Shown one piece after another: positions 6,916 through 15,318 of a DNA stretch of 64,000 bases. The notes beneath the pieces are model-generated. The model worked only from the letters and a program-made list of their open reading frames with translations, had not been told where the DNA came from and searched no databases. How positions within the stretch are numbered: position 1 is the stretch's first letter; each line of letters begins with the position of its first letter. A program made the translations under genes and the position numbers. This stretch comes from Bacteroidales bacterium (GTDB taxonomy: Bacteria; Bacteroidota; Bacteroidia; Bacteroidales; CAIWKO01), in assembly GCA_035389045.1 (NCBI GenBank), contig DAOORA010000003.1:62001-126000 (forward strand). The letters run 5' to 3'.

Positions 6916-9900
6916 TTAAGCTTTGTTTAAAGAAACAAACGTGTTTATGTCGTCAGTCAGTTCAAGATAGTGTTTTTCGCCGGCAATGTCTTCAACGAAA
7001 TTAATTGATACGGCTAAAATTTCGGTGCAAATATAAGAAAAATTATTTTCCACAGCTTTTAATAAATCAGGACGCTTTTCAAATTCAACCCTTATTTTGT
7101 CTGTGACCTCCAGTCCAAGCTCTTTCCGGAGATTCTGGACTCTGTTGACCAGTTCTCTTGCCACGCCTTCTTCTTTTAGCTGTTCGGTGAGCGTAATGTC
7201 AAGTGCGACAGTGGTATTATCGGCCACGGCAACAACCCAGCCAGGAATATCTTCGGTAATGATTTCTACATCAGATAGTTCGAGATACAGTACTGTTCTA
7301 TCTACGATGATCTGAATTTTATTATTTTTCTCAAAATCATAGATTTGCTCCTGAGACAATCCGGCCACAGCCGCAGCCACCTGTTTCATCATTTTTCCGA
7401 ATTTCGGACCGCAGGATTTGTAATCCGGCTTGATCTTCTTTACAAGAATATTGGCAGAACCTTCGAGATATTCAATTTCCTTGATATTCACTTCGGACAG
7501 GATGAGATTTTTTACCGCTTCGATCTGTTTTTTCATCTGTGGATCGATGATCGGTATCATGATCTTATTCAGGGGCTGGCGTACCCTGAGGTTGTGCTTT
7601 TTACGAAGCGAAAGAACCATCGAAGATATTTTCTGCGCAAGCTGCATCCGTTCTTCCAGGTCTTTATCCACATAATTCAAATTTGCAGTGGGGAAACTGG
7701 TCAGATGAACAGAACTTGTATTTAATCGTCCAGAAACCGAATTCAGATCCAGAAAGAGTTTTTCGGAGAAAAAAGGAGCGATAGGGGAAGATAAGCGGGC
7801 AAGGGTTTCCAGGCAGGTGTATAACGTCTGATAGGCGGCTATTTTATCTTCGGTGTATTCGCCTTTCCAGAAACGACGCCTGCAAAGACGCACATACCAG
7901 TTGCTCAGGTATTCATCTACAAAGTCCTGGATAAGCCTTCCGGCACGCGTAGGCTCGTATTCCGAAAAACACCGGTCCACCTCCGCCATCAGCGTATTGA
8001 GTTCTGATATGATCCACCGGTCTATTTCCGGCCTTTTACCGACAGGTATTTCTTCCTCCTGATAGGCAAATCCGTCAATATTGGCGTATAAAGCAAAGAA
8101 TGCATAGGTATTGTAAAGGGTTCCGAAGAACTTGCGCTGAACCTCGCCTATACCCTCAGCATCAAATTTCAGGTTGTCCCAGGGCTGCGAATTGGTGATC
8201 ATATACCAGCGGGTGGCGTCGGGGCCGTACTTTGCAATGGTATCAAAAGGATCTGCTGCATTTCCCAGCCGTTTCGACATTTTATTTCCGTTTTTGTCAA
8301 GCACAAGGCCGTTTGAAACGACATTTTTATATGCCACTGAATCAAAAAGCATGACAGCTATGGCATGCAGAGTAAAGAACCATCCACGGGTCTGATCAAC
8401 GCCTTCGGCAATAAAATCGGCAGGAAACTTTGCCCTGAAAACTTCTGAATTTTCAAACGGATAATGTAGCTGTGCATAAGGCATAGATCCCGAATCGAAC
8501 CAGACATCAATGAGGTCGGGCTCGCGGAACATCTTTTTCCCGCTGGCCGAAACAAGAATTATTTCATCAACATAAGGACGGTGAAGATCGATAGTATTAT
8601 AGTTTTCCTTTGTGAAATCTCCGGGAACGAAATCCTTGTATGGGTTAGCAGCCATATATCCTTTTTCAACCGCTTTTTCAATCTCCTTTTTTAATTGTTC
8701 CACCGATCCCATGCAAAGCTGTTCGCTGCGGTCAGGCGTCGACCATATCGGCAGAGGCACCCCCCAGTAACGTGAGCGCGAAAGATTCCAGTCCACAAGG
8801 TTTTCCAGCCAGTTGCCAAAACGCCCCGTACCGGTACTTTCCGGCTTCCAGTTGATGGTTTTGTTCAGTTCTATCATCCGTTCTTTGCAAGCCGTAGTTT
8901 TGATAAACCACGAGTCAAGCGGATAGTAAAGTATAGGCTTGTCGGTACGCCAGCAATGCGGATAAGAATGTTCGTATTTTTCGGATTTGAAAGCCCTGTT
9001 TTCTTTTTTCAGCTTAACAATAATGTCAATATCTACATTGTTGCCCGGTTCTGTGTTCGGGTTGGTGTCGTATTCATTTTTTACGTATCTGCCGGCAAAT
9101 TCACCCATCTCTTTGGTGAATCTTCCCTGTTTGTCAACCAGTATCAGTGAGCCGAGGCCGTGTTGTTTAGCGGTCCGGAAGTCATCAGCGCCAAAACTGG
9201 GCGCAATATGCACGATACCCGTTCCGTCATCGGTGGTGACAAAATCGCCCGCAACCACTTTAAAAGCATCGCCGTCGTCTGGCTGGGCAAAAGGAAGAAG
9301 CTGTTCATAGCGGATCCCGTCAAGCTGTTTTCCTTTGAACTCTGCAACTATGCCATAAGGAATGTTTTTGTCACCGGGCTTATAGCCTTCCATTAGCAAG
9401 GCTGCATTTTTTTCAGGGAAAAAAGTTTCTTTAAGATTTTTCGCAAGTATCACGGTAACAGGCTGATGGGTGTATTGATTAAAGGTGGCTACAGCAACAT
9501 AATCAATATCGGCTCCGACAGCCAGCGCGGTGTTCGACGGAAGTGTCCATGGTGTGGTGGTCCAGGCCAGTATGAATAATTCGCCATGAATGTTTTTCTG
9601 AAGTTCGTTTACCAGGGCGTGTTCATTGCAAATCACCCGGAACTGTGCTACCACTGTATTATCCTTAACATCTTTGTAGCATCCGGGTAAATTCAGCTCG
9701 TGCGAACTCAATCCGGTGCCTGCAGCAGGGGAATAAGGTTGTATGGTATATCCTTTGTAGAGCAGGCCTTTTTCATAAAGCCGGCTGAGCAGGTGCCAAA
9801 CGGTTTCGATGTACTTGTTGTCAAACGTGATATAGGGATTTTCAAGGTCAACCCAATAGCCCATCCTGACGGTAAGGTCGTCCCATTGATCCTTGTATTT

Positions 9901-10281
9901 CATAACTTCTTTGCGGCACTGGGCGTTATATTCTTCAACCGTGATGGATTTTCCTATGTCTTCTTTGGTGATCCCCAGTGTCTTTTCAACAGCTATTTCA
10001 ATGGGCAGTCCGTGGGTGTCCCAGCCGGCCTTACGTTCCACGTAATAACCCTTTAATGTCTTGTAACGGCAAAAAATATCCTTTATGGCACGGGCCATCA
10101 CATGGTGGATGCCGGGCTGGCCGTTGGCCGAAGGAGGACCTTCGTAAAAGACATAGGGGGGATTTCCCTTACGGGTATCAATACTTTGATGAAAAACATC
10201 ATGCTGCTGCCAGTAGTCGTTTATCTCGCTTGCAATGTTTGTCAGGCTCAGTTGCTTGTATTCAGTGTATTTCTGTTTCAT
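6916..10281 (-). CDS. ileS: Isoleucine--tRNA ligase (type 2)
   Basis: GPPSANGQPGIHH, WTTTPWT, GTGIVHIAP, EGVDQTRGWF, KMSKR; likely start MKQKY at 10281. Confidence 0.97.
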   Translation of the reverse strand: MKQKYTEYKQLSLTNIASEINDYWQQHDVFHQSIDTRKGNPPYVFYEGPPSANGQPGIHHVMARAIKDIFCRYKTLKGYYVERKAGWDTHGLPIEIAVEKTLGITKEDIGKSITVEEYNAQCRKEVMKYKDQWDDLTVRMGYWVDLENPYITFDNKYIETVWHLLSRLYEKGLLYKGYTIQPYSPAAGTGLSSHELNLPGCYKDVKDNTVVAQFRVICNEHALVNELQKNIHGELFILAWTTTPWTLPSNTALAVGADIDYVAVATFNQYTHQPVTVILAKNLKETFFPEKNAALLMEGYKPGDKNIPYGIVAEFKGKQLDGIRYEQLLPFAQPDDGDAFKVVAGDFVTTDDGTGIVHIAPSFGADDFRTAKQHGLGSLILVDKQGRFTKEMGEFAGRYVKNEYDTNPNTEPGNNVDIDIIVKLKKENRAFKSEKYEHSYPHCWRTDKPILYYPLDSWFIKTTACKERMIELNKTINWKPESTGTGRFGNWLENLVDWNLSRSRYWGVPLPIWSTPDRSEQLCMGSVEQLKKEIEKAVEKGYMAANPYKDFVPGDFTKENYNTIDLHRPYVDEIILVSASGKKMFREPDLIDVWFDSGSMPYAQLHYPFENSEVFRAKFPADFIAEGVDQTRGWFFTLHAIAVMLFDSVAYKNVVSNGLVLDKNGNKMSKRLGNAADPFDTIAKYGPDATRWYMITNSQPWDNLKFDAEGIGEVQRKFFGTLYNTYAFFALYANIDGFAYQEEEIPVGKRPEIDRWIISELNTLMAEVDRCFSEYEPTRAGRLIQDFVDEYLSNWYVRLCRRRFWKGEYTEDKIAAYQTLYTCLETLARLSSPIAPFFSEKLFLDLNSVSGRLNTSSVHLTSFPTANLNYVDKDLEERMQLAQKISSMVLSLRKKHNLRVRQPLNKIMIPIIDPQMKKQIEAVKNLILSEVNIKEIEYLEGSANILVKKIKPDYKSCGPKFGKMMKQVAAAVAGLSQEQIYDFEKNNKIQIIVDRTVLYLELSDVEIITEDIPGWVVAVADNTTVALDITLTEQLKEEGVARELVNRVQNLRKELGLEVTDKIRVEFEKRPDLLKAVENNFSYICTEILAVSINFVEDIAGEKHYLELTDDINTFVSLNKA

Positions 10282-10314
10282 AGTAGTTATGTCACTCTTT
10301 AGAAAAAAAACGTG

Positions 10315-10322
10315 CAAAGGTA
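10315..10322 (-). promoter_or_regulatory. Bacteroidota -7 promoter element for ileS
   Basis: Reverse complement TACCTTTG about 35 nt upstream of the start. Confidence 0.6.
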
Positions 10323-10524: not shown

Positions 10525-11514
10525 GTGAAAAAAACAGTGCTGACAATTATTGGTTTTTTTATGTTATCGTCAGGTGCCGGCCTGTTGGCTCAAACAGATA
10601 CTGCAAGCTTGTTGAAAAGGTGGCTGCCCAATATAACAGGCGTTATCAGGGCAAAATACGAACAAAACACCAGCAATGGGAAAGGCCGGTTTGATGTGCG
10701 GAATGCTCGTTTTGGCATGCAGGGAAATGCAGGGAAGCACTTCGGATATAAATTTGAAATAGATTTTTGCGACGAAGGCCAGATAAAAATGCTCGATGTT
10801 TACGCCAGTTTTATTCCAGTAAAAAACCTAACCTTGTCCCTGGGGCAGATGAAAGCGCCCTTCAGCACAGAATATCTGCTGAATCCTGCAAAATTTGAAT
10901 TTGCCAACCGTCCGTTCATTGACAAACGTATTTGCAAGGATCTCAGGGATATAGGCTTCAAAATCACTTACGATTATGACGGAAAGATACCTTATTCGGT
11001 TTCGGGGGTTGTAATGAACGGTACCGGAGTTAACAATCCCGAATGGACAACCCGGTTTGCTGCTGGCGGCAGGGCGGTCGTCGGGCCGTTTTATGGTATT
11101 ACCCTGCAGGCTAATTACGCAAAAGGAATCATCAGCGGCAAAAAAACGGAAATGCAGGATTACGGTATACGTTACGAGCATAAGGGTTTGGTGATAAACA
11201 CAGAGTATGCGCAGAAGACCATCGTGGATACTGCAAGCGCATATACTCAGAATAGTATGTTTGCCTACGTGCTCTATAATTTTCAGTTCAAGAAAGGAAT
11301 GATAAGAACATTGACGCCCGCCGTCCGCTATGATTTTTATTCGGGAAACATTAAATCGGGGATATATGAGCCGCACAGGATCACCGCCGGCCTGACAATG
11401 GGCTTTCACAAGCTCTCTTATGCTTATATACGCTTCAACTACGAAAAATATTTTTATCAGGTATCTGAAGGCCGGGATGACAAATTTACCGTGGAGTTTA
11501 CGGTTCGTTTTTAA
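10525..11514 (+). CDS. Outer-membrane porin, phosphate-selective porin O/P-like
   Basis: Signal peptide, RFDVRNARFG...YKFEIDF...LDVY...GQMKAPFS pattern, amphipathic beta strands, C-terminal Phe. Confidence 0.8.
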   Translation: MKKTVLTIIGFFMLSSGAGLLAQTDTASLLKRWLPNITGVIRAKYEQNTSNGKGRFDVRNARFGMQGNAGKHFGYKFEIDFCDEGQIKMLDVYASFIPVKNLTLSLGQMKAPFSTEYLLNPAKFEFANRPFIDKRICKDLRDIGFKITYDYDGKIPYSVSGVVMNGTGVNNPEWTTRFAAGGRAVVGPFYGITLQANYAKGIISGKKTEMQDYGIRYEHKGLVINTEYAQKTIVDTASAYTQNSMFAYVLYNFQFKKGMIRTLTPAVRYDFYSGNIKSGIYEPHRITAGLTMGFHKLSYAYIRFNYEKYFYQVSEGRDDKFTVEFTVRF

Positions 11515-11656
11515 GAAAAAAATCGCGTAATAATATTATATCCATGGTTTTGACAGAATCAGGAAGGCCTTTTACTTTGCTTAAAGGCAAAACGATATCA
11601 ACAATTGTTAATAAAATGCGTTTATTTCTTGTTAATAACTTTTTTTTAAAAAACAC

Positions 11657-11688
11657 TTGACTTTTGTGGGTTGTTTTTTGTATTTTTG
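11657..11688 (+). promoter_or_regulatory. Bacteroidota housekeeping promoter (-33/-7) with no downstream protein gene
   Basis: TTG(A) at 11657 and TATTTTTG at 11681-11688, 21-nt spacer. Confidence 0.6.
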
Positions 11689-11773
11689 TTTTCTCAGGTG
11701 AGCGATAATGCGCCGGCTTGAAAAAGCAAGTTCTTTTAATGGCTGTATTTTTAAAAGGGAGTTTATTGATGTG

Positions 11774-11948
11774 CGTTTTCCGGGCAGATGGTCTGTATGG
11801 ATCATTTACAGAAAGGAAACATCTTAGCTGATGAGTATATCGTGCTGCCGGAATAGAAATATGATCAATAAAGGTAACCCGAACCGCAAGGAACAGGCGA
11901 ACTAACCGTAATCTGACATGGAACGGCAGTTACGACGGCCGGGAAGTG
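11774..11948 (+). ncRNA. Candidate structured non-coding RNA (~175 nt), family not recognised
   Basis: Closing stem cgttttccgg/ccgggaagtg; hairpin agatggtc/gatcattt; long stem cgtgctgccg/cggcagttacg capped by cc-GCAA-gg; flanked by a promoter and a terminator. Confidence 0.55.
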
Positions 11949-11990
11949 AATGGGGAACAAGCGAACAAGTTTGTTCCCCATTGTGTTTTT
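11949..11990 (+). terminator. Intrinsic terminator
   Basis: aatggggaacaagc-gaacaa-gtttgttccccatt, 14-bp stem, followed by gtgttttt. Confidence 0.75.
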
Positions 11991-12103
11991 ATAAGGGGGA
12001 TAAAAAATAATCATAGATTTAAGGATCAATCGGAAAAGTTGAGGACTTGTTTTTTATCTATAAATTAACCTGCAAGCCAAAGGCGGACGAAAGAACGGTT
12101 TTT

Positions 12104-13003
12104 TTATTCAATCTTTTTTTTGAAACAATCACGGACAGCTTGAATAAAAGCCTTGGTTGCTTCAGTTTGATATTTATCCTTTTTCCATATCATGTACAAC
12201 TTAGTATTAAATGCAGGACCTTTCCACTTTAAACTTTTTAGGGTTCCGTCTGATAGTTCCCTTTCAACAGCAATTCCAGGTAATAAACCAATACCCATAC
12301 ACCCGGTTAGCAACATCTTTTTTAGTGTTTCGGGATTGTTAACTTCTATTGTTCTCCTTAATTTTACATTAGCTTCAATAAGCATTTTCTCAAAAATCAT
12401 ACGGTAACTGCAATCAGATTTTGATAACAACAGTGTTTTATCGTTAAAATCGCTGATGGCAATTGCCTTATTGTTAAATATATCATCATGCGGGTTTGCA
12501 ACAAAAGTCAGTTCCACTTTGGTTAATTCTTCAACATATAAAAGTTTTTCACTGAAATTATCAGAAAAAAGAAACGCCAGATCGATTACCCCTGCATTAA
12601 AAATATCATAGACATTATACCCGACGCATCCGTCAAAGTCGAAACCAATATTGGGAAATTTTAATAGGAATTCATTGATAATTGGAGGTAAATACCAGGT
12701 GGCAACGGAATGTGGTGTTTTTATGATAAGAGTTCCTATTGTTTTATCCAAATATTTAAAACTACTATGGATTTCGTTTTCAAGATTAATTAAACGTTGA
12801 GTATATTTAAGCAACTTCACCCCTGATGGAGTCAGGGAAATTTTATTCCCCGACCTGATAAACAATGTTTCTCCCAAACTGTTTTCCAAAGACTGAATTT
12901 GTGAAGAAACGGTTGATTGTGCATAATTCAAAACATTAGCAGCCTTATTGAAACTTAACAAGTTGGCTACTACCTGGAATGTCTTTAATTCTCTGAACTC
13001 CAT
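12104..13003 (-). CDS. LysR-family transcriptional regulator
   Basis: HTH SFNKAANVLNYAQSTVSSQIQSLENSLGETLFIR; 299 aa. Confidence 0.95.
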   Translation of the reverse strand: MEFRELKTFQVVANLLSFNKAANVLNYAQSTVSSQIQSLENSLGETLFIRSGNKISLTPSGVKLLKYTQRLINLENEIHSSFKYLDKTIGTLIIKTPHSVATWYLPPIINEFLLKFPNIGFDFDGCVGYNVYDIFNAGVIDLAFLFSDNFSEKLLYVEELTKVELTFVANPHDDIFNNKAIAISDFNDKTLLLSKSDCSYRMIFEKMLIEANVKLRRTIEVNNPETLKKMLLTGCMGIGLLPGIAVERELSDGTLKSLKWKGPAFNTKLYMIWKKDKYQTEATKAFIQAVRDCFKKKIE

Positions 13004-14061: not shown

Positions 14062-15318
14062 ATGAAATACAAATCATTATTACTTGCAATTTCAATTTCG
14101 ATTATTGCAGTGAATTCGATAGCGCAGGTAACCGGTACTTTTACCGATTCCCGTGACGGAAAAGTGTATAAAACAATTACCATTGGCACCCAGACATGGA
14201 TGGCTGAAAACCTTGCCTACAAATCCCCAACAGGGTGTTTGGCTTATGATAACAGTATGGCAAATGTGAATCAGTATGGTTACCTTTACAATTGGGATGT
14301 TGCAAATAAAATGTGCCCGGCAGGCTGGCATCTGCCAGGCAAAGCCGAATGGTTGATATTAATAAATTATTTAGGAGGGACAGCGGCTGCACAGAGCCAA
14401 TTACTGGCACAAAATAGTAACGGGTTTTCTGCAAAAACGGGAGGACAGGCCATGGGGGGCGAGGATTTTATGTATTTGGATAGTAATGGGTATTGGTGGA
14501 GTTCAACAGAAAATGATGATGGCGATTTAGCATTTCGTATTGCAATGGGGGTAAAAATGTTAGAAATTAGCTTGTTTGAGCAAGATAAAGATGATGCGTA
14601 TTCTGTCCGTTGTATTAAAGATAAAAATGATGAGCCTACCGGCTTTCTTAATCAAAATATTGCAGATACAACAAAGCCAACTGTTGTGGAAAAAGTTCAG
14701 CAAAACAATGTCACTGCGGCTGATATTACCGAAAAAACCTTTACTGATATCCGCGACGGCAATGTTTATCACACTGTAAAAATAGGCACACAAGTATGGA
14801 TGACGAATAATTTAATGACCACCAAATATAATGACGGCACCCCTATAACATTAATAACTGATAATTCATCATGGCAAAACGCTACCGGGGGAGCTTATTC
14901 CTGGTATAATAACAAGGAAACCAATAAAGCTACTTATGGCGCATTATACAATTGGTATGCGGTAAACACGAATAAACTCTGCCCAATCGGATGGCATGTG
15001 CCCTCACAAAAAGACATTCATCTTCTTCTTATGGCACTCGGCAGTCAAGGCGGCGATAAACTAAAAGAAGCCGGCAAAAAGCATTGGTTAAGCGAAAACG
15101 CAGGCAACAATAGCAGCGGATTTACTGCCCTTCCCGGAGGTAGTCGCAGCTGGAGTGGAGAATTCTCCAATCTTCAGAAAATTGGCAATTGGTGGAGCTC
15201 TACTGAACAAAAAGAAAAGGTAGCCTATTCGCTGTACTTATATTACTCAAAAAGTGAAGCGGAAAATAGCACAGGTGGTAAAACCGAGGGAATGTCAGTA
15301 CGTTGTATAAAAGATTAA
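14062..15318 (+). CDS. Exported protein with two tandem FISUMP (Fibrobacter succinogenes major paralogous) domains
   Basis: Two copies of FTD.RDG.VY.T..IGTQ.WM..NL / YG.LYNW / CP.GWH.P / WWSSTE / SVRCIKD. Confidence 0.9.
   Translation: MKYKSLLLAISISIIAVNSIAQVTGTFTDSRDGKVYKTITIGTQTWMAENLAYKSPTGCLAYDNSMANVNQYGYLYNWDVANKMCPAGWHLPGKAEWLILINYLGGTAAAQSQLLAQNSNGFSAKTGGQAMGGEDFMYLDSNGYWWSSTENDDGDLAFRIAMGVKMLEISLFEQDKDDAYSVRCIKDKNDEPTGFLNQNIADTTKPTVVEKVQQNNVTAADITEKTFTDIRDGNVYHTVKIGTQVWMTNNLMTTKYNDGTPITLITDNSSWQNATGGAYSWYNNKETNKATYGALYNWYAVNTNKLCPIGWHVPSQKDIHLLLMALGSQGGDKLKEAGKKHWLSENAGNNSSGFTALPGGSRSWSGEFSNLQKIGNWWSSTEQKEKVAYSLYLYYSKSEAENSTGGKTEGMSVRCIKD

Follow-up and report, generated by a model that had tools for sequence, protein, structure and literature searches.

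What is encoded in the gap between a porin gene and a LysR-type regulator gene in a Bacteroidales genome is the question raised by the locus considered here. The window, that is, the whole stretch of DNA that was analysed, comprises 64,000 nucleotides (nt) of a Bacteroidales bacterium (GTDB family-level lineage CAIWKO01; GenBank assembly GCA_035389045.1, contig DAOORA010000003.1, positions 62,001 to 126,000 of the forward strand), and positions are counted from its first letter. The gap is poor in open reading frames (ORFs) and houses a promoter, ~300 nt of hairpin-rich sequence, and a terminator, which a first-pass annotation made from the letters alone had taken for an unannotated stand-alone structured RNA. 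This proposal is borne out: positions 11693-11990 of the plus strand specify an RNA of about 300 nt that is transcribed independently, non-coding, and highly structured, with a conserved promoter and terminator, covarying pairs among homologues, changing neighbours, and RNA-library contigs from three studies that lie on the unit only. Moreover, this RNA is a short (~300 nt) member of an uncatalogued family of large RNAs, which occurs in Bacteroidota and some metagenome-assembled genomes (MAGs) of Chlorobiota.

Transcription of the unit can be seen in public sequencing data. The stretch or part of it occurs in 20 rows of a public-run index, 12 of which are recorded as RNA; these rows represent 14 studies, whose samples were activated sludge, biofilm, digester, and wastewater. 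Four runs were mapped onto positions 11300-12300. Contigs assembled from RNA libraries of two studies span 11702-11943 (run X3) and 11703-11942 (run X4), and those of run X16 (11713-11896, 11867-11908, and 11879-11993) represent a close variant with three differences and one 1-nt gap. In the RNA runs, which come from three studies, the unit alone is covered and the ends of both flanking genes are bare, while all 1001 bases are covered in the DNA run X1, perhaps the source of this assembly. The word depths of the X16 contigs (23,549 and 3,884) are a poor gauge of level and show good representation only. Contigs reveal neither transcript ends nor strand, and the parts left bare in X3 and X4 (11693-11701 and 11944-11990) are no proof about the ends. 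The contigs of X3 and X4 stop within one base of each other, with no loose ends, where the DNA run continues; these matching stops are a weak hint at a shorter stable form of the RNA.

The unit has its own signals for the start and the end of transcription. The -33/-7 promoter that had been proposed is present as CTTGAC and TATTTTTG, and its CTTGA and TA..TTTG boxes are invariant in 9/9 aligned homologues. A TTG..TAnnTTTG pair is also located directly ahead of the 5′ core word described below in 18 of 23 order-level loci, and TAnnTTT is quoted as a promoter motif for Segatella and B. thetaiotaomicron in the accessible text of a preprint (bioRxiv 10.1101/2024.04.05.588293). At the other end, a G+C-rich stem-loop is followed by a U tract, in agreement with the 14-bp terminator predicted earlier (stem 11949-11982), and one RNA-library contig ends at 11993. 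Both promoter and terminator are kept in all nine homologues at 69-75% overall identity. The 5′ end of the RNA would lie a few bases past the -7 box and the 3′ end in the U tract past the terminator. A 39-aa ORF (11708-11827) was considered as a small protein and rejected, as its ATG start is missing in most homologues, which have GAUAAAGC or GAUAAAAC instead.

With regard to the fold, the plus strand has a folding energy of -90.5 kcal/mol versus -75.6 +/- 5.4 kcal/mol in shuffles (z = -2.77). The minus strand gives a close value (z = -2.42) and, because both strands behave similarly, folding energy leaves the strand undecided; it is settled by the promoter, the terminator, and the comparative data. 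A BLAST search of 61 related genomes detected the stretch in 10 of them (own genome included), nearly full length and at 69-75% identity, and conservation in the 9-sequence alignment is highest in the promoter boxes and over the first ~50 and last ~110 nt. RNAalifold predicted a single nested fold that spans the transcript, with 83 pairs, 30 of which show compensatory changes. In this window group, 91.8% of the cells are paired compared with 85.7 +/- 0.6% in shuffled alignments (0/500 shuffles reach the observed value), pairs changed on both sides number 30 against 12.5 expected, and slid partners are 37-45% paired. The fold is branched, with five branch points, and its conserved loop lies beside the terminal helix. 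Since the 5′ end at 11694-11699 pairs with 11911-11916 (helix P1), the whole transcript is one fold, and the earlier division into a leader and a ~175-nt domain has to be abandoned. Inside P1 and the conserved loop, helix P2 is paired in 100% of the cells of the window group and has compensatory changes in three of its four pairs.

Several smaller elements drawn in the first-pass annotation reappear in this fold. The short leader hairpin (11716-11719/11724-11727) is paired in 9/9 homologues with one compensatory change, the 8-bp hairpin placed at 11786-11807 has a close counterpart at 11784-11794/11799-11809, and the catc/gatg hairpin (11820-11823/11830-11833) is CAUC/GAUG in the window and CACC/GGUG in relatives. 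On the other hand, the 10-bp stem thought to close the domain (11774-11783/11939-11948) is 72.2% paired versus 70.9% in shuffles, 149 of 500 of which are as good, and it competes with a UACG-capped hairpin found throughout the family. That hairpin, formed by 11924-11941, also displaces the long arm that had been proposed at 11841-11850/11924-11934, while the GCAA-capped hairpin assigned to its tip is retained. Likewise, two boxA-like motifs had been noted, the first of which (11728-11740) is conserved and the second (11759-11770) unconserved among the nine homologues.

How widely the RNA occurs was assessed with two covariance models (CMs), R1, built from the window clade alone, and R2, which covers the 3′ domain only and was built from 107 sequences. 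These are the full-length relatives collected, which measure 222-669 nt, fall at 75% identity into 79 clusters, and derive from Bacteroidales, Cytophagales, Chitinophagales, and Chlorobiota MAGs. R1 detected the RNA in 14 of the 23 genomes of the GTDB family (9/13 among those at least 90% complete) and in 23 of 151 genomes drawn evenly from the order, long forms being recovered as well. R2, which scores the window at 76.6 bits (E = 2.9e-14; the window is one of its training rows), detected it in 33/151 genomes of the order sample and in 5/151 complete genomes drawn from the whole phylum, a set in which families without the RNA predominate (e.g., 0/31 and 0/22). Both R2 counts are lower bounds, as 26 of ~1000 first-look candidates were scored per genome and the filters were strict. 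Distant R1 matches share both ends and differ in the middle.

In addition, a 3′-domain pattern applied to one genome per prokaryotic species gave at least 120 stretches. Among the matches listed, the carriers include Bacteroidales MAGs (Rikenellaceae, Lentimicrobiaceae, and Prolixibacteraceae among them), Cyclobacteriaceae (Algoriphagus, Cecembia lonarensis LW9, Mariniradius saccharolyticus AK6, Pleomorphovibrio marinus, Aquiflexum, and Cyclobacterium), Chitinophagaceae and Chitinophaga MAGs, one Flavobacteriales MAG, and two Chlorobiota MAGs. Most genomes have a single copy; the RNA gene is sometimes duplicated, with two or more copies in G055, G098, G137, and G148 and a tandem of 3′-domain copies on a Bacteroidetes MAG contig (L138, 701-754 and 1154-1207, both on the minus strand and ~450 nt apart). 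A link to phages was considered and dropped, the viral collection having given one pattern match, at a contig end.

Members that differ so much in length share a core composed of P1, a near-fixed internal loop (roughly 11 x 12 nt), P2, a C(UACG)G hairpin, and a GGGRA/UYCCC terminator hairpin. Family-wide, P1 is 96.3% paired versus 88.8 +/- 0.6% when shuffled (six pairs, 104 distinct members), with exchanges such as A-U 69/G-C 33, G-C 87/A-U 12/G-U 5, and C-G 48/U-A 33/U-G 19, and is followed by a fixed A/C mismatch. The P2 core of three to four pairs is 79.6% paired versus 71.6 +/- 1.1% when shuffled and 16-44% when slid. The internal loop between the two helices is near-invariant, with GAGNGAUAAA(A) on its 5′ and A.AAUAACNGUA on its 3′ strand. 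The 5′ core word CARRUGAGNGAUAAA is represented in the window by CAGGUGAGCGAUAAU (11695-11709, past the -7 box). Allowing up to four mismatches to the consensus, the word was found at a distance of 284-637 nt from the 3′ end in 20 of 23 loci at order level, and the seemingly short R1 matches are truncated alignments. It was also found in 75 of the 80 one-genome-per-species pattern loci examined, 130-569 nt upstream, and the five loci without it include evident chance matches (an Alteromonas genome and a Myxococcales MAG).

The window also possesses all parts of the 3′ domain, i.e., UAACNGUA, the P1 3′ strand, the UACG-capped hairpin, and the GGGRA terminator. In the 107-sequence alignment TAAC.GTA is invariant, 73 of these sequences having been collected by a pattern that requires it. 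The 3′ hairpin and terminator are 85.9% paired in the same alignment versus 66.5% in shuffles and 40-56% when slid, and contain 519 double-change cells versus 181 in shuffles. The pairs that close the UACG loop are 98.6% paired (A-U 48/G-C 37/C-G 11 and C-G 94/U-A 7/U-G 6), while the terminator stem, whose base GGGRA..UYCCC is kept family-wide, has 87.6% of its cells paired and compensatory changes in 9 of 11 pairs. Adjacent to P1, the loop letters GUA over GA, together with one additional G, could be drawn as a bulged-G/S-turn motif, a common protein-docking shape.

The unpaired stretches are the most conserved letters of the RNA and might act by pairing with another molecule. The RNA would then be a base-pairing regulator or sponge whose loop letters GAUAAAAGG or AAUAAC contact a conserved mRNA, tRNA, or rRNA, which its own promoter and terminator and its high representation in metatranscriptome contigs would also fit. 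We regard this as decidedly unlikely, as a seed kept across orders needs an equally conserved target, none having been identified, and small RNAs of this kind seldom have 200-550 nt of covarying structure. Furthermore, the conserved strands are opposed to each other in one internal loop, which points to a folded motif rather than a free seed.

The centre between the P2 strands is free in length and sequence and contains GNRA- and UUCG-capped hairpins. Its recurring words are those of tetraloops, CCGCAAGG being found in 23 of the 79 cluster centres and CCGAAAGG and UCUUCGGA in 22 each, while no 8-mer occurs in more than 10/79 clusters in shuffled centres. Relatives replace the centre of the window RNA by about 100-550 nt of other tetraloop-rich hairpins; accordingly, subgroup alignments show differing multi-hairpin centres round one shared core, and the CM alignments have conserved ends with inserts of 0-262 nt between them. 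So dense a set of tetraloop hairpins, in a large RNA with a conserved peripheral architecture and no associated protein gene among the flanking ORFs scanned, brings to mind a machine made of RNA only. It could be a ribozyme, or else an ornate RNA that assembles with itself in the manner of ROOL, GOLLD, and OLE, in which the loop and tetraloops would make RNA-RNA contacts. The latter three form homo-oligomeric complexes, as stated in the accessible part of PMC12286853. This explanation is unlikely in our opinion: conservation is limited to a small core of one loop, two short helices, and two hairpins, most of the RNA is unconserved, in contrast to ribozyme cores and to ornate RNAs with their extensive conserved contacts, and there are members as small as 222 nt.

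Is the family already known under another name? No match was obtained with Rfam 15 at gathering score in a scan of the 64-kb window, and a scan of 11400-12200 at E <= 10 gave only six weak matches at chance level (E 0.17-2.3). On the loci of 25 (5 + 20) relatives, gathering-score matches were limited to an unrelated tRNA, and 20 further diverse members yielded one irrelevant match at E <= 0.5. The OLE, ROOL, GOLLD, raiA, and HEARO models had no match on the window or on the loci of 45 relatives. The earlier remark that hallmarks of tRNA, tmRNA, RNase P, and SRP RNA are lacking holds as well; the genome has its RNase P RNA on contig C12 (271.8 bits), SRP RNA on C9 (51 bits), and tmRNA on C71, none of them on the window, and ARAGORN found no tRNA, tmRNA, or tRNA-like element in 11500-12100. 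A description of the RNA was not met with in full-text searches with the core words, in searches by topic, or in the accessible parts of PMC11109978, PMC8632094, bioRxiv 10.64898/2026.09.15.751765, and PMC8040213, although supplementary lists that were not seen, such as the thousands of unnamed candidates of PMC8040213 and those of the preprints, could hold it.

Like OLE RNA (RF01071), raiA, ROOL, and GOLLD, the new RNA is large, heavily structured, tetraloop-rich, and stand-alone, and it shares with OLE-type orphan RNAs the abundance in RNA libraries, a restriction to certain lineages, and the lack of a known biochemical function. OLE is flanked by oapA/B/C. Unlike OLE-type RNAs, the new RNA belongs to another phylum, has no Rfam match or adjacent partner genes, is not phage-linked, conserves only a small core, and varies three-fold in length. 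A second resemblance, to Y RNA/YrlA, is one of architecture only, as in both cases a stem of the 5′ and 3′ ends encloses a variable module. The suggestion that the 3′ part might form a T-arm-like element of a tRNA-like Y RNA finds no support, since the supposed T-arm is the UACG-capped hairpin and a TROVE/Ro gene (PF05731) had 0 matches in the 96.3%-complete genome, with positive controls in D. radiodurans and B. thetaiotaomicron. The new RNA is also much larger than Y RNAs and has neither a tRNA-like domain nor an Rfam match.

The first-pass annotation had also remarked that the size fits 6S RNA, and a 6S-like or Ms1-like RNA that binds RNA polymerase would indeed be abundant and stand-alone, with paired ends enclosing a large symmetric internal loop, as is the case for the Bacteroidota 6S RNAs (RF01693 and RF01685) and the new RNA alike. 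The three Rfam 6S-type models, however, miss the stretch. RF00013 and RF01693 (Bacteroidales-1) have no match in the genome of the window (G000), and the only match of RF01685 (6S-Flavo) lies on another contig (C4:86630-86768, minus strand; 42 bits versus the 85-bit cut-off). The latter candidate (locus L058, 1501-1639) has complementary ends, ACUCAAC...GGAGUUU, and a folding z of -3.1, and is plausibly the organism's own 6S RNA judging from these sequence features. Instead of the unbranched rod of about 110-190 nt with a central bubble that typifies 6S RNA, the new RNA has a branched variable centre, an intrinsic-terminator end, a loop at the end of the molecule rather than mid-rod, and lengths of 222-669 nt, a three-fold variation.

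The distribution of 6S RNAs provides a further argument on both sides. Bacteroidales-1, which is the 6S RNA of Bacteroides according to the accessible text of bioRxiv 10.1101/2024.04.05.588293, is present above the cut-off in 24/151 genomes of the order sample (32 at E <= 0.001). Its above-cut-off matches never co-occur with the new RNA (33/151), versus about 5 co-occurrences expected if the two were independent, and overlaps exist only below the cut-off (G098 and G127). This exclusion could suggest functional replacement, but it may merely mark different lineages, because related genomes are not independent. 6S-Flavo-like candidates, none of them over the cut-off, were found in 12/151 genomes of the order sample, and they coexist with the new RNA in four genomes (G000, G098, G144, and G147); in G098, both 6S models match one locus and 2-3 copies of the new RNA lie elsewhere. 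A 6S identity based on complementary distribution was consequently rejected, being explicable by lineage and contradicted by this coexistence, and the odds of a 6S-like or Ms1-like function appear poor.

The genomic context of the family does not single out a partner gene. A scan of 60 + 90 flanking ORFs found no family common to the loci, and the neighbours vary by lineage, comprising ThiF, dihydroorotate dehydrogenase (DHODH), carboxyl transferase (4), SRAP (5), ClpS (3), and many others, with a convergent DnaG gene in 3 loci and a same-strand RelA/SpoT gene in 3 loci. One relative (L054), which belongs to the family by both R1 and R2, is flanked by enolase and UbiD genes. Most frequent among the neighbours is a PF00144 serine-hydrolase gene, which directly follows the RNA in the same orientation in 14 loci from 6 clusters; the proteins are orthologues with 49-59% identity, that of a Chitinophaga MAG included. 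We take this adjacency as probably old synteny rather than a sign of a partner. An SRAP gene was observed upstream of the RNA in one of these loci (L040).

The same-strand PF00144 orthologues, together with RelA/SpoT or SRAP genes downstream in a few loci, are also what could be cited for a cis-acting leader or riboswitch-like element that controls a downstream gene. The gene that follows is convergent both in the window (LysR) and in many relatives (DnaG, DHODH, ThiF, or carboxyl transferase), a strong conserved terminator closes the unit and the RNA contigs stop there, and the would-be aptamer is the least conserved part. The changing and often convergent neighbours largely refute such a role, in line with the earlier verdict that this is not a 5′ riboswitch, and what probability it keeps is negligible. 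The convergent next gene, the neighbours that differ by lineage, and the mostly single copy per genome speak for a stand-alone RNA that would act in trans.

A clue to how the RNA is made comes from the first boxA-like motif, GUUCUUUUAA, which is identical in 9/10 letters to the boxA of the organism's own rRNA operon (rrn) leader, GUUCUUUGAA. In this leader (G000:C79, L187, a truncated operon), AAAAAGUUCUUUGAAAAU is located about 113 nt before the 16S 5′ end. The leader boxA was also observed to come after two TAnnTTTG-type promoter boxes. In the rrn leaders of three other genomes, AGUUCUUUGAGAU (G018) and AGUUCUUUGAAUG (G302 and G279) lie 102-137 nt before 16S, the shared core being GUUCUUUGA; a working boxA consensus for these Bacteroidota is AGUUCUUUGA. 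The window and rrn motifs fit the gamma-proteobacterial consensus GYTCTTTAANA given in the accessible part of PMC5725501, as well as the boxA of E. coli (UGCUCUUUAACA) and B. subtilis (AUGAUCUUUGAAA) given in that of PMC13753749, where boxA is also placed upstream of suhB and CRISPR operons.

The motif recurs in the family, with GTTCTTT in 39/107 members and a boxA-like pattern in 25/79 clusters, usually 26-54 nt from the 5′ end. From the 1325 occurrences of GTTCTTT on both strands of the 4.46-Mb own genome, about 5/79 clusters would be expected by chance. It is tied seventh among the central 7-mers, five of the six higher ones being tetraloop-hairpin words, and is the sole recurring non-tetraloop motif of the centre. 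In the window clade, the GUUCUUU strand is invariant while its predicted partner drifts within pairing and the helix shows no compensatory change, which fits a constraint on the boxA-like sequence itself. The match to the rrn leaders, the fit to the consensus, the recurrence, and the strand invariance together make the motif a probable Nus-factor loading site that would help a long untranslated transcript to escape Rho.

In rRNA leaders and CRISPR arrays, boxA shields a long untranslated transcript from Rho. In the window RNA, as in the rrn leader, GUUCUUU[U/R]A follows a small hairpin and is placed close to the 5′ end of a structured transcript that is long and untranslated, and the leader-trailer helix of pre-rRNA is similar to the 5′/3′ pairing of the new RNA. 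The new RNA differs from rrn leaders and from the CRISPR and suhB cases in that the motif is present in about a third of the family and the product is neither rRNA nor crRNA.

Taken as a whole, we consider it somewhat short of an even chance (a probability of roughly 0.45) that the RNA is a trans-acting scaffold of a ribonucleoprotein, in which the core docks a protein encoded elsewhere and a boxA/Nus step is used in part of the family. According to this proposal, GUUCUUU[U/R]A in the window clade and about a third of the family probably loads NusB-S10 on RNA polymerase, by analogy with rRNA leaders; the loaded factors would shield the transcript from Rho and aid its folding, and the strong intrinsic terminator would then end transcription. 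Acting in trans, the mature RNA would provide a ribonucleoprotein with its RNA subunit or scaffold, the fixed core of the RNA being the binding platform for the partner and its variable centre serving as structural ballast or a lineage-specific add-on.

A number of observations weigh against this proposal. Among the flanking ORFs scanned, no conserved neighbour points to a partner protein, and the patchy spread (at least 33/151 in the order and 5/151 in the phylum) means that the RNA is dispensable or replaced in many lineages. The S-turn interpretation is beyond the reach of covariation because the loop letters are invariant. The structure of the window group was tested on the same alignment that yielded it, and, since the 14 + 107 sequences share descent, significance is exaggerated by the shuffle controls. 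The boxA-like motif is lacking in 54/79 clusters, Cyclobacteriaceae forms included, and is base-paired in the predicted mature fold, while boxA is bound as a single strand.

The last two points also bear on the idea of a Nus-factor decoy, in which an abundant RNA titrates NusB-S10 through boxA and thereby tunes rRNA transcription. The near-identity of the motif to the organism's rrn boxA and the very high contig word depths in one metatranscriptome would suit a decoy, and Nus factors act on targets other than rRNA, with boxA also serving in their autoregulation, as reported in the accessible part of PMC5725501. Nevertheless, with the motif absent from most clusters while the rest of the core is universal, titration is not the main function of the family, and pairing of the motif in the mature fold is a further difficulty; we give the decoy slim odds. 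Beyond the ribonucleoprotein scaffold and the alternatives weighed above, the remaining probability belongs to something not thought of.

The features of the unit and its surroundings are collected in Table 1.

Table 1. Elements of the RNA gene and adjoining genes (window positions), with the relatives' loci that have a PF00144 neighbour.
Feature	Position	Strand	Remarks
RNA gene	11693-11990	+	CM R1 match 11689-11992; RNA-library contigs on unit
-33-type promoter element CTTGAC	11656-11661	+	TTG core 11657-11659
-7 promoter box TATTTTTG	11681-11688	+	Bacteroidota TAnnTTTG type
P1, 5′ strand UCAGGU	11694-11699	+	pairs with 11911-11916
Conserved internal loop, 5′ strand GAGCGAUAAUG	11700-11710	+	family consensus GAGNGAUAAAAGG
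P2, 5′ strand CGCC	11711-11714	+	pairs with 11896-11899 (GGCG)
Small hairpin GCUU-GAAA-AAGC	11716-11727	+	arms 11716-11719/11724-11727
boxA-like motif GUUCUUUUAA	11730-11739	+	predicted mature-fold partner of GUUCUUU (11730-11736): 11871-11878
Variable central domain	11740-11870	+	four nested helices; holds 11784-11809 and CAUC/GAUG hairpin 11820-11833
GCAA (GNRA) tetraloop hairpin	11881-11894	+	arms 11881-11885/11890-11894
Conserved internal loop, 3′ strand AACUAACCGUA	11900-11910	+	family consensus AUAAUAACNGUA
P1, 3′ strand AUCUGA	11911-11916	+	pairs with 11694-11699
UACG-capped 3′ hairpin	11917-11948	+	outer 11917-11920/11945-11948; inner 11924-11930/11935-11941
Intrinsic terminator	11949-11990	+	14-bp stem 11949-11982 (6 G-C pairs), then GUGUUUUUAU U tract
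Upstream neighbour, porin (Porin_O_P)	10525-11514	+	outside RNA unit
Downstream neighbour, convergent LysR-type regulator gene	12104-13003	-	outside RNA unit
PF00144 loci	L040, L044, L073, L075, L078, L085, L087		same strand as RNA
PF00144 loci, continued	L095, L119, L121, L122, L124, L135, L136		same strand as RNA

Some further observations were made in the vicinity of the unit. A 33-nt word is located at 12023-12055, ~35 nt past the RNA terminator, and its first 22 letters recur on assembly contigs C22, C34, C54, and C107, at most ~55 nt from the ends of these four contigs. The DNA run X1 contains a 1425-nt contig of four-fold higher depth that carries the 33-nt word at both ends in opposite orientation, and the word has the look of a terminal inverted repeat belonging to a multi-copy mobile element, or of a solitary end of such an element. 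Elsewhere in the window, the protein encoded by 14062-15318 (plus strand; 418 aa) contains a Fibrobacter succinogenes major paralogous domain (Fib_succ_major, E = 6e-68), and 6916-10317 (minus strand) is an isoleucyl-tRNA-synthetase-like gene of 1133 aa with a C-terminal DUF5915; both are ordinary neighbours.

With regard to significance, few large structured bacterial RNAs have been added in decades, and OLE, raiA, ROOL, GOLLD, and HEARO/omega RNA each began new work. The present family is widespread in environmental Bacteroidota, including wastewater, digester, and sediment lineages and Cyclobacteriaceae, and features strongly in metatranscriptome assemblies. With so compact and clearly delimited a core, it lends itself to direct tests, and cultured carriers are available (Cecembia lonarensis LW9, Mariniradius saccharolyticus AK6, Algoriphagus algorifonticola, and Pleomorphovibrio marinus). 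Ryan et al. in 2020 are said to have described Bacteroidota as being without classical RNA chaperones, and for this reason an abundant RNA with a protein-docking-like core could reveal a new RNA-protein system. In its widest form, which we put forward only tentatively and think doubtful as a whole, the proposal would be that the family is a new class of large, highly expressed RNA, ancient in the Bacteroidota-Chlorobiota lineage and made with the aid of boxA and Nus factors, whose invariant core (the S-turn loop and the UACG and terminator hairpins) docks a widely conserved machine. If true, RNase P, SRP, tmRNA, and 6S would be joined by a fifth "housekeeping-like" RNA, and, should the boxA link be real, Nus-factor antitermination would also reach a non-coding RNA that stands alone.

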